A stretch of DNA of 64,000 bases from a virus: IMG/VR virus record IMGVR_UViG_3300008050_000024, positions 1 through 64,000 of that record. One strand, given 5' to 3'. Shown one piece after another: positions 8,976 through 45,725 of the stretch (its first letter is position 1; the number at the start of each line of letters is the position of its first letter). Both the position numbers and the translations under genes were made by a program. The notes below the pieces were generated by a model that saw only the letters and a list, made by a program, of their open reading frames with translations, ran no database searches and had not been told where the DNA came from.

Positions 8976-9155
8976 CTACGCCACCTTAGTACAATAGTAA
9001 CACGAAATACAGACATCGTCTAATTTAGGAGGGTTCATGCGCGCATGAACGTGTACGGACAAGGGTACGGGGGTCCAGTCCTCGTAAGAGTCGATCCTAT
9101 CCGCTGAATTGGTCCAATGCCGAGAAACAAGAAAACCGTTGCGATCAATGTCCAT
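8976..9155 (-). CDS. Possible 59-aa small protein (below ORF-track cutoff)
   Basis: GGAG 8 nt before ATG; MDIDRNGF...CISCYYC. Confidence 0.35.
   Translation of the reverse strand: MDIDRNGFLVSRHWTNSADRIDSYEDWTPVPLSVHVHARMNPPKLDDVCISCYYCTKVA
8994..9022 (-). promoter_or_regulatory. Sigma70-like promoter
   Basis: TAGACG-17-TACTAT, followed by TGTACTAA. Confidence 0.55.
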
Positions 9156-9257
9156 CGTCCATTCTCCGTAAACATACAGGGCAGGGGGTCTGCGCCTTGT
9201 CCAGCAGGACTGTGCGCTTGTCGGTTAGGACGACCCCCGTCCCTTATGAAAATAATT

Positions 9258-9569
9258 TTATCTCGTCAACTCCCTAAAGCGTAAGTACGCCTCTCCAAGA
9301 TAAGAACTGATTCCCCTGTACCCGTAGGTATCGCTGATCGCCGACCTAAGCGCCTCTTGATAGTCTGAAAAGGATTTAGTAGAGGAATTCGTTGGTATCT
9401 CGTCCGGTTCCAAGTCCATTCCGCTCAAGTAAACAAGTACCCAATCACCCGAAATGCTCTTGTATATTGAAATCGTTTCAAACCAGTTGTGCCTTTCGGA
9501 AGGCTTCTGGCTGTTGTTCCAGTCGCTTTCTTCTTTCCAGGCCCGGCTTGTCTTGTTCGTAAGTTTCAT
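9258..9569 (-). CDS. Hypothetical protein, apparently leaderless
   Basis: ATG 6 nt after the -10 box; no RBS. Confidence 0.7.
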   Translation of the reverse strand: MKLTNKTSRAWKEESDWNNSQKPSERHNWFETISIYKSISGDWVLVYLSGMDLEPDEIPTNSSTKSFSDYQEALRSAISDTYGYRGISSYLGEAYLRFRELTR

Positions 9570-9575
9570 ACCTTG

Positions 9576-9604
9576 AGTATATGAAAACGAAGTAAAGCTG
9601 TCAA
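9576..9604 (-). promoter_or_regulatory. Strong sigma70 promoter
   Basis: TTGACA-17-TATACT. Confidence 0.85.
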
Positions 9605-9887: not shown

Positions 9888-10166
9888 CTAGGCCTCCACA
9901 CCACGGTAAAGGATCTCAATCCAGGACATACCCAAAACGCTGTCCGAATGCTTCATACTAACGAGCCCCAAAAGCCTTGAGCTGATGGCGATCACATTAC
10001 CAGGAATGGCCCCGTAGAAATCACCCGTGAATTTGACCCGCACATACTCGCCCACGGCTGACTCGATTTCCTGTGCGTTGATCCTGGTTACCTCCAGGTT
10101 TGAAAATGTTTTAAAATGCTTCCTAAACTCATTCAGGTCTACCAGCTTTTTTGAAGTCTTGCTCAT
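9888..10166 (-). CDS. Hypothetical protein
   Basis: RBS GAGG; directly downstream of the hammerhead. Confidence 0.65.
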   Translation of the reverse strand: MSKTSKKLVDLNEFRKHFKTFSNLEVTRINAQEIESAVGEYVRVKFTGDFYGAIPGNVIAISSRLLGLVSMKHSDSVLGMSWIEILYRGVEA

Positions 10167-10190
10167 ATCTCTCTATCCTCGGTCTACAGC

Positions 10191-10266
10191 GTCCTGGCTG
10201 ATCATCAGACACCGGGAGCCATCCCGGCATTACCCAGACCCCGGAGGGTCCAGGTTTCACACGGAC
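10191..10266 (-). ncRNA. Type II hammerhead ribozyme
   Basis: Minus strand reads GAAA, stem III (CCUGGACCC/UCCG/GGGUCUGGG), GUA cleavage triplet, stem I (AUGCCGGGA/UGGC/UCCCGGUGU), CUGAUGA; loop I UGGC can pair with downstream GCCA. Confidence 0.85.
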
Positions 10267-10683
10267 CTACTTTTTCAAATGGTTCTTCACAATACCTTCG
10301 AAGATATCCACAGCCTCCACCATTTCCCTCTTGAGTTTCGCCGTATACTTGATGGCGTCGAAAGTGTCCTCATGGGCTCCCAGTCGCTCGAAATGGGTAT
10401 CTAACACGTTCTCAAACTCTGAAGCTCTGGCGCTGATCTGTCCGACCATGTGATACAGCGGGAGGATAGGAAATAATGCATCCCATTTAGACTCGTTGAC
10501 GAGGTTCCCATCTTCAACCACCATAGCCTGGATCTCATCCCTGCCAACGATGCAAGTCTCCCCTGCCATCGTGGAATCGTCATACCCCCTTTTCATGAGC
10601 TCATCTTTGACTTTCCAAACGATCCCAGTGTCAGGAGTTGTAATGCACGCTTTCGATGTGATGATGTTGTCTTTCTTTTTCAT
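10267..10683 (-). CDS. Hypothetical protein
   Basis: RBS GGAGG. Confidence 0.7.
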   Translation of the reverse strand: MKKKDNIITSKACITTPDTGIVWKVKDELMKRGYDDSTMAGETCIVGRDEIQAMVVEDGNLVNESKWDALFPILPLYHMVGQISARASEFENVLDTHFERLGAHEDTFDAIKYTAKLKREMVEAVDIFEGIVKNHLKK

Positions 10684-10938: not shown

Positions 10939-11494
10939 TTGCCTTCTCCTTTGCGCGCCTCTCGTCCTCTAAGACCGTCGCAATTCCTACGATGTGCTGT
11001 AGACTAGTAACCTTGCCATTCAGAAAGTATTTAAAGCGCCAAAACTGTGTTCCAAATTGATTGATCACTTCATGGGAATCTACGGTGACTTCCATTCCCT
11101 CGAAACGGCTGATTTTCAGTTTGTCAAAAAAGCGTTCCTTACTGCGTTCTAGTGCCTCCGTCAACTCCTGGACAATCTCGCTCATCAACTTGTCCGCTGC
11201 CGTTTTCGGTTTCCTGGGCAGCACGCCAATTTCCTTCATTTCATTACGGACTGCCACGAGTTCGATTACTTCATTCAAATGTCCGTAGCGCCTAAATATG
11301 AAATGATGCTTGTCACGTACTTGATGCAGTTGAAATGGCAATCCCCAGTATAGGGAGTCATACAGTTCGCCGTGCCTTTCATCTGGGCCGGTGAATTCCT
11401 GTAGAATCTTTGTCCTTACTGTGTCCTCCAGTTTGTCATACGCCCTGGACACTTTTTCAAGTTCCCTGCTCTTCGCTGCTTTTGAAACGAACAT
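10931..11494 (-). CDS. Hypothetical protein
   Basis: ATG 11494 after AGGAGG. Confidence 0.7.
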   Translation of the reverse strand: MFVSKAAKSRELEKVSRAYDKLEDTVRTKILQEFTGPDERHGELYDSLYWGLPFQLHQVRDKHHFIFRRYGHLNEVIELVAVRNEMKEIGVLPRKPKTAADKLMSEIVQELTEALERSKERFFDKLKISRFEGMEVTVDSHEVINQFGTQFWRFKYFLNGKVTSLQHIVGIATVLEDERRAKEKANG

Positions 11495-11619: not shown

Positions 11620-11683
11620 CCTCTTGTGTGTATGTTGTTCGTACCCATGTTCTAAGTATAAGGAACAAACGAAAAAGACACAA
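11620..11683 (-). promoter_or_regulatory. Promoter plus conserved 41-bp leader, copy 1
   Basis: TTGTGT-17-TATACT; 35/41 identity to 12085-12125. Confidence 0.75.
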
Positions 11684-11685
11684 GA

Positions 11686-11720
11686 GGGTTTGAAAAAAGA
11701 ATTGAACTTTTTTCAAACCC
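11686..11720 (-). terminator. Terminator-like inverted repeat
   Basis: Perfect 14-bp arms GGGTTTGAAAAAAG/CTTTTTTCAAACCC just after a stop codon. Confidence 0.6.
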
Positions 11721-11726
11721 CGAGTA

Positions 11727-12084: not shown

Positions 12085-12148
12085 CCTCATGTGTGTATGT
12101 TATTCGTACCCGTGTCTTGAGTATAATGACGAGGAGAGGGTATGTCAA
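12085..12148 (-). promoter_or_regulatory. Promoter plus conserved 41-bp leader, copy 2
   Basis: TTGACA-17-TATACT. Confidence 0.85.
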
Positions 12149-42998: not shown

Positions 42999-45725
42999 AT
43001 GAAATCTTTTTTTAGTAAGTCAGATCCCCTTTTAAAGCAAAAGGGATATTCGGGGAGTTGCCATACTTGCCGGCTGTATCTAACTTGCCAGAGCCCTAAA
43101 ATGGTAGCATCTGGGATGGGTAATCGTAGAATCCTTCTAATAGGTGAAGCGCCAGGAGAAGCAGAAGACGCCAGAGGGGAAGCAATGGTTGGGCCCTCTG
43201 GTCAGTTCCTGGAACAGACACTCCGGGCTAATGGTATTCTAATGTATGAGGACTGCTGGAAAACCTACGCACTCCAATGCCGTCCTCCTAAAGGAAAGCA
43301 GATAACCGATGAGAGTTTATCTGCTTGTAGGACTCGAGTCATAAAAGAAATAGAAACACTCAAACCCCATCTAATCATTTTGCTAGGAAAAACGCCTTTG
43401 TCCAACGTGCTGTTAGAAGAGTTAGATTCCGAGTTTACTGGAGCCATTGCCTCTTGGCGAGGTAGAGTGATTCCCTTTTATAAGTGGAATTGCTGGGTGG
43501 CTGTGGTATCTAATCCGGCATTCGTCCTAAAATCAGACACTAAGAAGGATTGCAATGCGCTACTTTTTAAGCAAGATATAGCAAAGAGCATCCAATACAT
43601 AAATAAACCCCTTCCGGCGCCTATAGAGGAGCGTAGACACGTGCTCGGAACTCGGGAGGCTGTGGCCTTCTTGTCTAAATTGATCGTACGACCACCTGGA
43701 AACCGTGTCGCATACGATTATGAAGGAACAGGACTAAAGCCTCACGCAAAGGGACATGGCATTGTCTGTGTAGGATTAGCCGTAAATGAATCAGACGTGT
43801 ACTCATTTCTTCTACCCCACATTGATCCTAAATGGACTGATGCTGAAATGCAGGAACATCTCCAACCTGAAGAGTTTCAGCTTATCTGTCTTTGGCGGCG
43901 ATTCCTAGCAAGTGAACTGGTAAAGAAAACAGCACATCATTTGAAATTTGAACACAGCTGGTCTAAAGAGATCTACGGAACTGAGGTGAGGGGGTGGGAG
44001 TGGTGTTCAATGGAAGCTGCTCACATCTTGGACAATACGGAAGGAACAAACGGATTGAAATTCCTTGTGTTTGTTGAGTTTGGCATCACGGACTATAACG
44101 CCGATGTGTCGCAATACTTAAAATCCAGCAAAAAGGAAGAAAAGAGAGTAGGCAAAAACGCCATAAACCGAATCCATCAGTGTAGCAAGCAACTGCTACT
44201 CGAATACGTAGGTGGCGATGCCTTGTACCAATGGCATCTAGGAGAACGACAAAGACAGCAGATGGAAACGCATAAGTTTCGATATCCTCCTAATGTTCTC
44301 ACAATACATGACGCATACGACTTGTTTCACGAAGGTGCTATTGTCCTGGCCGAGATTGAAGCCCACGGAGTAGCCATTGATACAAAGTATTCGACGCAGA
44401 CCATGCAGGAACTCAATGGCCAGATTGAGGGGATCAAAAACGACCTAAAGGAAACCGAGGTGTACAAAGCATGGTATCAAAAATACGGATTCAATACCAA
44501 TGTAGAATCCGGGGCCCAGCTAGCCGATGTGCTCTATAACATCCTGGGTCTTACTCCCACCAAAATGTCTGAAAGTGGAGAACAGGGGTCAACAGACCAC
44601 GAAGCCGTAGCCGGTCTCATCGGAACCGTACAAGGAATTGAAGAAATAGCCCGCATAGGCAAATTAAGGAAAATATCAAGCACATACCTAGGCGGATACT
44701 TGAGGGAAAGCGTTGACGGTATCATACACCCCTTCTTTCATTTGCACATTCCCAGGACATTCCGATCCTGTAGCCGTAACCCTAACTTTCAAAACGTCCC
44801 GAAACGGGACTATGAGAGTATGTCAATCACACGTCGATCCATTATACCCCGCCCTGGACACGTTCTTGTCGAGATTGACTTCTCAAATATCGAAGTTCGC
44901 ATCAGCGCCTGCTATCACAATGACAAGCAGATGATCATCTACATCAAAGATCCCACTACGGACATGCACAGAGACCAAGCCATTGAAGTATTCAAAATGC
45001 AGCCTTCTTGGTGGCACGGATTAACTAAGCCCCAAGAGAAGAAAATGAAGCCTATCCGACATACAGCAAAGAACAAATTTGTATTCCCTCAATTTTACGG
45101 AGACTACTTTGTTAGTTGCGCCCAGGCTATGTGGCAGGAAGCCGCTGAACATACGCTTTTCAATGATGTTCCACTACTTGAACACATGAGATCTCAAGGC
45201 ATTGGTACCTTAGAATCCTTCACTCAGCACATGAAAGAGGTCGAACACAGGTTTTGGCATGAACGCTTCCCAGAGTACACAGCTTGGAAGGAACAGTGGT
45301 ATAAGGATTACATTGCCCGGGGTTGGTTTATAATGAAAACCGGGTTCAAATCAGAAGGGCTGTTTACCAGAAATGAAGTAATCAATCACCCTGTACAAGG
45401 ACCAGCATTTCATTGCCTTTTATGGAGTGTCATTCAAATGCACAAGGAATTAAAAGCCCAAAACAGCCAGTCACGTATTTGTGCACAGATTCACGATTCC
45501 ATGTTTTTAGATGCAGACCCGGATGATTTAGACTTTATTTTCGAGAAATCTACAGAGATAATGACACAGCGGTTGGTAGACGAATGGAAGTGGATCACAG
45601 TCCCATTGGCGATAGAACACGATGTCAGCAGGGTAGACGGGACTTGGCAAGAACAGACGACATTACCGTGGGATAAGTTAAAGAACAGACAAGAGGATAT
45701 CCGTACGTTTTTAGCGAGTATATAG
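42999..45725 (+). CDS. polA: Family A DNA polymerase with N-terminal family-4 UDG-like domain and 3'-5' exonuclease
   Basis: GEAPG/CRPP; DYEGTG; NPNFQNVP; motif A DFSNIEVR, motif B RHTAKNKFVFPQFYG, motif C QIHDS. Confidence 0.96.
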   Translation: MKSFFSKSDPLLKQKGYSGSCHTCRLYLTCQSPKMVASGMGNRRILLIGEAPGEAEDARGEAMVGPSGQFLEQTLRANGILMYEDCWKTYALQCRPPKGKQITDESLSACRTRVIKEIETLKPHLIILLGKTPLSNVLLEELDSEFTGAIASWRGRVIPFYKWNCWVAVVSNPAFVLKSDTKKDCNALLFKQDIAKSIQYINKPLPAPIEERRHVLGTREAVAFLSKLIVRPPGNRVAYDYEGTGLKPHAKGHGIVCVGLAVNESDVYSFLLPHIDPKWTDAEMQEHLQPEEFQLICLWRRFLASELVKKTAHHLKFEHSWSKEIYGTEVRGWEWCSMEAAHILDNTEGTNGLKFLVFVEFGITDYNADVSQYLKSSKKEEKRVGKNAINRIHQCSKQLLLEYVGGDALYQWHLGERQRQQMETHKFRYPPNVLTIHDAYDLFHEGAIVLAEIEAHGVAIDTKYSTQTMQELNGQIEGIKNDLKETEVYKAWYQKYGFNTNVESGAQLADVLYNILGLTPTKMSESGEQGSTDHEAVAGLIGTVQGIEEIARIGKLRKISSTYLGGYLRESVDGIIHPFFHLHIPRTFRSCSRNPNFQNVPKRDYESMSITRRSIIPRPGHVLVEIDFSNIEVRISACYHNDKQMIIYIKDPTTDMHRDQAIEVFKMQPSWWHGLTKPQEKKMKPIRHTAKNKFVFPQFYGDYFVSCAQAMWQEAAEHTLFNDVPLLEHMRSQGIGTLESFTQHMKEVEHRFWHERFPEYTAWKEQWYKDYIARGWFIMKTGFKSEGLFTRNEVINHPVQGPAFHCLLWSVIQMHKELKAQNSQSRICAQIHDSMFLDADPDDLDFIFEKSTEIMTQRLVDEWKWITVPLAIEHDVSRVDGTWQEQTTLPWDKLKNRQEDIRTFLASI

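Follow-up and report, generated by a model that had tools for sequence, protein, structure and literature searches.

The question raised by this locus is whether a phage hammerhead that lacks the most conserved pair of stem II is still a hammerhead, and whether it still cuts its transcript. The window, 64,000 nucleotides from position 1 of IMG/VR record IMGVR_UViG_3300008050_000024, belongs to an uncultured phage whose record comprises 103,868 bases (104 kb) and is 94% complete as estimated by CheckV. A gap of 100 nt between two open reading frames of the minus strand, 10267–10683 and 9888–10166, is occupied by an element that the initial annotation had read as a pseudoknotted type II hammerhead ribozyme. 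From its full-length alignment to the Hammerhead_II family, the geometry it shares with 115 canonical phage copies and its intergenic position, this identity stands, and the element is very probably a hammerhead by family. The best explanation of the locus as a whole, which is considered likely, is that of a genuine type II hammerhead with a rare but published U-U mismatch, cotranscribed within a unit of about five genes, that cuts itself and uncouples the upstream and downstream parts of the operon.

Read on the minus strand, positions 10191–10266 form a complete type II hammerhead composed of GAAA, a 10-bp stem III, the triplet GUA, a 9-bp stem I and CUGAUGA. The order along the gap is GUCC, G, UGU, GAAA, a 10-bp hairpin with a UCCG loop, G-U-A, a 9-bp hairpin with a UGGC loop, CUGAUGA, UCA, GCCA and GGAC. 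The individual parts are as follows.

10263–10266, minus strand: 5' strand of the outer helix (GUCC), which extends stem II and pairs with GGAC 10194–10191 in the minimum free energy (MFE) and centroid folds
10262, minus strand: G10262, a lone spacer base facing the pseudoknot strand (sequence and Rfam alignment)
10259–10261, minus strand: 5' strand of stem II, U11.3, G11.2 and U11.1 (sequence and Rfam alignment)
10256–10258, minus strand: core G12 A13 A14, at 10258–10256 (sequence and Rfam alignment)
10232–10255, minus strand: stem III hairpin of 10 bp, from A15.1 (10255) to U16.1 (10232), with the UCCG tetraloop at 10245–10242 (descriptor scan and folds)
10231, minus strand: A17, with cleavage predicted 3' of it, between 10231 and 10230, from the placement of the GUA triplet relative to the core
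10209–10230, minus strand: stem I hairpin of 9 bp, two of them G-U, formed by 10230–10222 with 10217–10209 and closed by the loop UGGC 10221–10218 (descriptor scan and folds)
10202–10208, minus strand: core C3 U4 G5 A6 U7 G8 A9, CUGAUGA (sequence and Rfam alignment)
10199–10201, minus strand: 3' strand of stem II, with U10.1 (10201, mismatched with U11.1 at 10259), C10.2 and A10.3 (sequence)
10195–10198, minus strand: pseudoknot strand GCCA, complementary to the UGGC of loop I, in letters and position as in the Rfam consensus (sequence)
10191–10194, minus strand: 3' strand of the outer helix, GGAC (folds)

The helix order recovered by the descriptor scan is that of type II, GAAA-III-UH-I-CUGAUGA, in which stems I and III are both closed by 4-nt loops and stem II is open. 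All of the invariant core, C3 U4 G5 A6 N7 G8 A9 and G12 A13 A14, is present (CUGAUGA at 10208–10202 and GAA at 10258–10256), as is the A15.1-U16.1 pair (A 10255, U 10232), which is followed by the non-G base A17 at 10231. The UGGC of loop I (10221–10218) can pair with GCCA (10198–10195) as judged by complementarity, in a register that is found both in the Rfam consensus and in the 115 canonical copies. The G10.1-C11.1 pair at the base of stem II is absent, with U 10201 standing opposite U 10259. Stem II therefore reads U.U, C-G and A-U, and past a 1x4 internal loop it is prolonged in the folds by the 4-bp outer helix (10266–10263 with 10194–10191), which runs on past a one-base bulge into a UAG/CUG pairing whose UAG is the upstream stop codon. 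The ribozyme starts one base past this stop codon (TAG, 10269–10267), and the predicted cut site lies 64 nt before the downstream ATG at 10166.

Every element that the initial annotation had listed is recovered by this reading. The complete core, the cUCCGg loop and the UGGC/GCCA pseudoknot, the last as complementarity, are all found on the minus strand within 10191–10266. The predicted cut at 10231|10230 and the distance of about 64 nt to the next ATG are correct in coordinates, the U-U at 10.1-11.1 had rightly been pointed out, and the start on the sense strand directly after the stop of 10267–10683 falls a single base beyond the TAG. Both stems I and III had been given as 9 bp; this is right for stem I, and stem III reaches 10 bp when the A15.1-U16.1 pair is counted. 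The description of stem II as minimal needs correction, since in the folds the 4-bp outer helix beyond the 1x4 internal loop extends it.

The ribozyme sits in an arm of small minus-strand genes in a genome that is mostly coding. The features that bear on its transcription are listed here.

11655–11721, minus strand: terminator-like hairpin (11721–11685) with a TATACT -10 box after it at about 11660, where the unit probably starts (consensus scan and sequence)
10267–10683, minus strand: upstream gene encoding an orphan protein of 138 aa, with a strong ribosome-binding site before its ATG and a TAG stop codon at 10269–10267 (open reading frame list)
9888–10166, minus strand: downstream gene encoding an orphan protein of 92 aa, with the ribosome-binding site GAGGA at 10180–10176 (open reading frame list and sequence)
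9576–9604, minus strand: promoter-like site TTGACA-17-TATACT with 11 of 12 matches, the likely end of the unit (consensus scan)

From the promoter- and terminator-like sites at 11721–11660 and 9604–9576, the ribozyme is probably placed inside a unit of about five genes that runs from the promoter near 11660 to 9604, with three of the genes preceding the ribozyme and two following it. With sigma-70-like promoters and small orphan genes, the label of an "early" mRNA that had been given to this operon is plausible. A second TTGACA-17-TATACT promoter-like site, again with 11 of 12 matches, is located at 12148–12120 on the minus strand, and a -10 box with a leader of about 35 nt (TATACT...GGGTACGAA.AACATACACACA) is repeated on that strand at 12125–12085 and 11660–11620. 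Further along the same strand, a GC-rich RNA with a three-way junction lies at 9178–9244 between genes 9258–9569 and 8976–9155. It has an MFE of -38.8 kcal/mol (z = -4.8, with 0 of 200 shuffles folding as well) and is followed by no U-run; because its best Rfam matches are weak (E of 0.26 or worse), it is taken to lie outside the known families and ribozyme classes.

Two other functions were considered for the intergenic hairpins. An intrinsic (rho-independent) terminator was rejected: the bases after stem III are AAUGCC and those after stem I are CUGAUGA, neither of which is a U-run, and the consensus scan called no terminator-like site within 10190–10270. A ribosome-binding-site switch was likewise rejected, as 10180–10176 is moderately paired in the folds before and after cleavage alike.

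The relatives of the phage and of the flanking genes provide little material for comparison. Among 5.8 billion proteins, the 138-aa protein matched only itself, and it had no PHROG match; the 92-aa protein and the 196-aa third protein of the operon also matched only themselves. Searches of IMG/VR and the JGI metagenomes with the flanking and operon proteins returned nothing, and no GenBank phage matched by DNA similarity. Through the two orphan proteins that flank the ribozyme, no homologous locus was found, and in turn there is no covariation test at this copy's own locus. On the plus strand, the gene at 42999–45725 encodes a fusion protein (UDG-PolA) in which a uracil-DNA-glycosylase-like domain at the N terminus is joined to a family A DNA polymerase. 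This fusion has more than 2,000 metagenomic relatives at E below 1e-30, with identities of 33–42%; its best match among cultured phages is only about 25% identical, and exact peptides of it in IMG/VR revealed no close relatives. In the 28 IMG/VR records that carry a related polymerase, distant relatives identified by HMMER alignment and searched whole, a type II hammerhead occurs once, as a canonical copy of 40.7 bits with a different pseudoknot. Thus, the ribozyme appears to be sporadic rather than a trait of the clade. Hammerheads in phages are generally sporadic.

How firmly the element can be told from a chance arrangement was assessed with a covariance model and a descriptor. The Rfam Hammerhead_II model (RF02276) has a gathering cut-off of 37 bits, and at gathering thresholds Rfam gave no match in the window. 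With reporting by E-value, RF02276 covers the element over positions 1–66 of its 66, so that the hammerhead model search suggested earlier finds an end-to-end alignment, although at 27.2 bits it remains below the gathering score of 37. The E-value of this match is 0.001 when 251 nt are searched with all families and rises to 0.26 over the whole window; for the one family against the 103,868-base record it is 1e-4. In the alignments of this hammerhead and of the second U-U copy described below, the structure line of RF02276 pairs consensus positions 2–3 with G10.1 and c10.2 and leaves C11.1 unpaired, and it seems to be one base out of step with the textbook G10.1-C11.1 pair. The descriptor, in which GAAA is followed by a hairpin that opens with A and closes with U, then by a non-G base, another hairpin and CUGAUGA, was scanned over both strands of the window and found exactly one site, the hammerhead under study. 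Over 300 dinucleotide-preserving shuffles, it turned up three sites when stems of 4 bp or longer were required, and no site in which both stems reached 7 bp. No further hammerhead of type I, II or III is present in the window with one core mismatch tolerated, and no other ribozyme class was detected anywhere in it at E up to 5. A chance origin is excluded on the scale of the window. The motif, its potential to fold, its improbability by chance, its intergenic position on the sense strand and its resemblance to the family are established directly.

The family resemblance becomes more specific when the element is compared with the canonical form of the pseudoknotted phage hammerheads. A pattern scan of IMG/VR for this form, with C11.1, G10.1 and the same A-GCCA tail, showed it to be abundant (at least 120 matches), and 115 distinct copies among the matches listed pass the stem test. 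Among these 115, stem I is 8 or 9 bp long in 102 copies; loop I carries UGG and consists of either 4 nt (UGGU or UGGC) or 6 nt (GUGGYG); the GCCA tail begins three bases past A9; the 10.2-11.2 pair is almost always C-G; and 11.3/10.3 is A.A, U-A or C.A. In the present ribozyme, stem I is 9 bp long and carries a UGGC loop, and the pairs at 10.2-11.2 and 10.3-11.3 are C-G and U-A, respectively. From these matches, it is a member of the common phage subfamily except at 10.1/11.1. An outer helix of at least 4 bp is found in 9 of the 115 canonical copies among the matches listed, compared with 7 of 115 in a control that pairs flanks of different records.

The exception at 10.1/11.1 was then considered in an unbiased set of 59 type II hammerheads from 1.18 Mb of hammerhead-rich phage loci, none of which had been selected by a search pattern. 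The pair is G-C in 53 of them, an extra U or A follows A9 in 6, and U-U occurs in none. The extra U or A between A9 and G10.1 is a recurrent natural variant of the core (loci L289, L298, L365, L366 and L391). Reading the present ribozyme with such an extra base after A9 was rejected, as it would leave a C-U mismatch at 10.1/11.1.

Natural hammerheads with U10.1-U11.1 have been reported, and among the mispairs of an earlier mutational study U-U supported the most cleavage (Perreault et al. 2011, PMC3088659). The concern over this mismatch in the initial annotation is thereby answered. The same work describes hammerheads that flank genes in prophages, native 2-kb polycistronic prophage transcripts that cleave in vitro and one hammerhead cluster that cleaves in E. 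coli, and it lists the hammerhead of phage PaP3 among active core variants in its Figure S6 (Perreault et al. 2011, PMC3088659). By our own parsing of the primer in Table S1 (PMC3088659), the PaP3 hammerhead reads as type III with a stem II that begins with U opposite U. Its sequence is conserved, identical or nearly so, in 51 Pseudomonas phages, and Rfam searched at E up to 1 gives no match to it. Since Rfam misses a hammerhead that is listed as active, failing the Rfam threshold is no argument against a U-U hammerhead. In Pseudomonas phage Clew-3 (L406, 301–357), the PaP3-type hammerhead ends at the ATG of the first annotated gene, and in phage records the stretch is annotated merely as a hypothetical protein.

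A search for the U-U form with the same tail across IMG/VR, the JGI metagenomes and one genome per GTDB species identified one real second copy. The pattern fixed the core, the triplet and the tail and left loop I, the spacer and the outer helix free; narrower scans, restricted to the exact U-U tail, returned nothing but chance matches within genes.

11049–11113, minus strand, of IMG/VR contig 3300028883_000046: second U-U type II hammerhead (L164; L235 is the same 75.7-kb contig), 33.0 bits, below the cut-off of 37

This copy lies on an AT-rich phage contig between two small same-strand genes, starts five bases past a stop codon and is flanked by proteins unrelated to those of the present ribozyme. 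The two copies have in common U-U at 10.1/11.1, a U11.3-A10.3 pair, the UGGC/GCCA pseudoknot, a lone purine as the spacer that faces the pseudoknot strand, an outer helix, a stem III capped by a UNCG-type tetraloop, the GUA triplet and a position between two small genes. They differ in that stem I of L164 has eight positions with two U-U mismatches and a 6-nt loop, its outer helix has 5 bp rather than 4 bp, its 10.2-11.2 pair is U-A where the present ribozyme has C-G, and the sequences of stems I and III are different. Compensatory changes between these two sequences from unrelated phages are found in stems I, II and III and in the outer helix, where three of the four pairs that align have different letters but remain paired. 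As the L164 copy scores 33.0 bits and the PaP3 U-U hammerhead, listed as active, is undetected, the Rfam threshold is uninformative for the U-U variant.

Folding calculations are consistent with this architecture and also reveal a competitor. For the 86-nt stretch the fold has a z-score of -2.4; its MFE and centroid structures each contain the two hairpins, which are also retained when longer contexts are folded. A nested alternative in which GUCUG (10210–10206), a stretch that takes in the start of the core, pairs with UAGAC (10186–10182) is, by nearest-neighbour energies, about 4–5 kcal/mol more stable than the competent fold plus the pseudoknot. The competing strand at 10186–10182 is transcribed only once the ribozyme is complete.

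Transcription as a single unit, cleavage and an effect on the messages may be inferred, and a course of events can be proposed. A transcript of about five genes would start from the promoter near 11660 and carry the ribozyme to the next promoter at 9604. The RNA would fold after transcription had passed stem III, stem I and the CUGAUGA strand; the pseudoknot between loop I and the tail would align stems I and II, and the RNA would cut itself after A17 (10231|10230). The upstream message would end in the very stable hairpin of stem III with a 2',3'-cyclic phosphate, and the 5'-hydroxyl that begins the downstream message would lie within the stem I hairpin, 64 nt ahead of the ATG. Such 2',3'-cyclic phosphate and 5'-OH ends are the established chemistry of the hammerhead class. 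The operon halves would become separate RNAs with protected ends, and their stability and expression could be uncoupled. That the operon transcript is cut and that the downstream message receives a 5'-OH end, as had been proposed, may be considered the standard expectation by analogy with such elements. Judging from the sequence, the present hammerhead probably cuts at a useful rate.

The main challenge to this reading is that the element could descend from a hammerhead but have lost its cleavage, or retain it at too low a rate to matter, its U-U mismatch and competing fold having disabled the ribozyme and its GC-rich hairpins being kept as exonuclease barriers or as a site for a host RNase. 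Several of the points that count against self-cleavage are the ones that this alternative would explain: the most conserved pair of stem II, G10.1-C11.1, whose loss lowers the rate in mutational work, is replaced by U-U; U-U is found in 0 of the 59 unbiased neighbouring type II hammerheads; the score is under the Rfam cut-off; and the alternative fold is more stable by nearest-neighbour energy, by about 4–5 kcal/mol. The failure to find a homologous locus and the occurrence of a type II hammerhead in only 1 of 28 distant relatives also count against the best explanation. However, a decaying copy should also gather changes in its core, so that the intact state of the 11 invariant core bases, the A15.1-U16.1 pair, the non-G base at 17 and the 4-bp pseudoknot would be unexpected after a loss of function. 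An independent second U-U copy, L164, keeps the same details. Furthermore, natural U-U hammerheads are reported with U-U as the best-tolerated mismatch, and the U-U hammerhead of PaP3 is listed as active (PMC3088659). A hammerhead that has ceased to cut is therefore unlikely, though it is the more serious of the alternatives. A chance resemblance, in which two unrelated intergenic hairpins (a terminator or an RNase III site, for example) happen to be flanked by GAAA and CUGAUGA, is far less probable. The core is short, chance occurrences of such motifs are noted for data sets of very large size (Perreault et al. 2011, PMC3088659), and a score of 27.2 bits, equivalent to 1e-4 per 104 kb, would give chance matches on the order of ten when scaled to roughly 250,000 windows. 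Set against this are stems of 10 and 9 bp where 300 shuffles had no site with stems of at least 7 bp, a pseudoknot whose letters and register are those of the family consensus, an exact fit on the sense strand of a 100-nt gap in a mostly coding genome, and the lack of a U-run after either hairpin.

The outer helix introduces a different alternative, in which the ribozyme cuts under regulation: the helix and its extension, which includes the upstream stop codon, would be needed to form stem II, and ribosomes terminating at 10269–10267 would gate cleavage. The helix 10266–10263/10194–10191 does continue into UAG/CUG after a one-base bulge, and a helix of this kind is present in both known U-U copies with this tail, compared with 9 of 115 canonical copies among the matches listed and 7 of 115 controls. 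Yet there are two examples only, the comparison is post hoc, and in L164 the helix begins five bases past the stop codon and not on it; regulation by translation is thus rather improbable. A broader form of the idea is that U-U type II hammerheads are a small distinct subclass, in which a Watson-Crick pair at 10.3-11.3 and an outer helix closing the 1x4 internal loop would offset the loss of G10.1-C11.1. Under this doubtful proposal, the four-base strand of the internal loop would make the pseudoknot with loop I, and cleavage would depend on pairing of the flanks and, at this locus, possibly on ribosome traffic at the upstream stop. The occurrence of the outer helix in 2 of 2 U-U copies, as opposed to about 8% of the 115 canonical copies among the matches listed, is suggestive, as a post hoc comparison of two sequences.

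With self-cleavage at an intergenic hammerhead as the preferred reading, the locus adds one clean example to a well-described class, the hammerheads that punctuate phage operons. The kind, including its U-U variant, has been known in phages since 2011, and the present copy is an ordinary new example of it. Its wider use lies in annotation. The Rfam Hammerhead_II threshold misses natural U10.1-U11.1 variants (27 and 33 bits relative to 37, with PaP3 undetected), and annotation pipelines therefore under-count U-U hammerheads. If compensation by the outer helix, which now rests on two sequences, proves true in more examples, it would shed some light on how a hammerhead tolerates losing the most conserved pair of stem II.

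The proposed function may be compared with that of RiboJ-type insulators, in which a hammerhead placed before a cistron removes the upstream RNA and leaves a 5'-OH and a hairpin, making downstream expression independent of what lies upstream. These insulators are synthetic parts derived from a satellite-RNA hammerhead, whereas the present ribozyme is a natural phage element. Another parallel is provided by the PaP3 hammerhead, which is also a natural intergenic phage element, reads with U10.1-U11.1 from its primer, lies directly before a gene and is missed by Rfam. It differs in being of type III, with stem III open, in having no GCCA/UGGC pseudoknot and in being shared by 51 related phages, in contrast to the present ribozyme with no homologous locus. 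The nearest known system is that of the pseudoknotted type II hammerheads of RF02276 and Perreault et al. (2011). The present ribozyme departs from these in having U10.1-U11.1 in place of G-C, a Watson-Crick U11.3-A10.3 pair, an extra outer helix of 4 bp, a score of 27.2 bits that is less than 37, and a single copy rather than a cluster. What it shares with them is their topology, the 11 invariant core bases, the A15.1-U16.1 pair, the GUH triplet, a stem I of 9 bp whose UGGC loop pairs with a GCCA located three bases past A9, and a setting among small same-strand phage genes.
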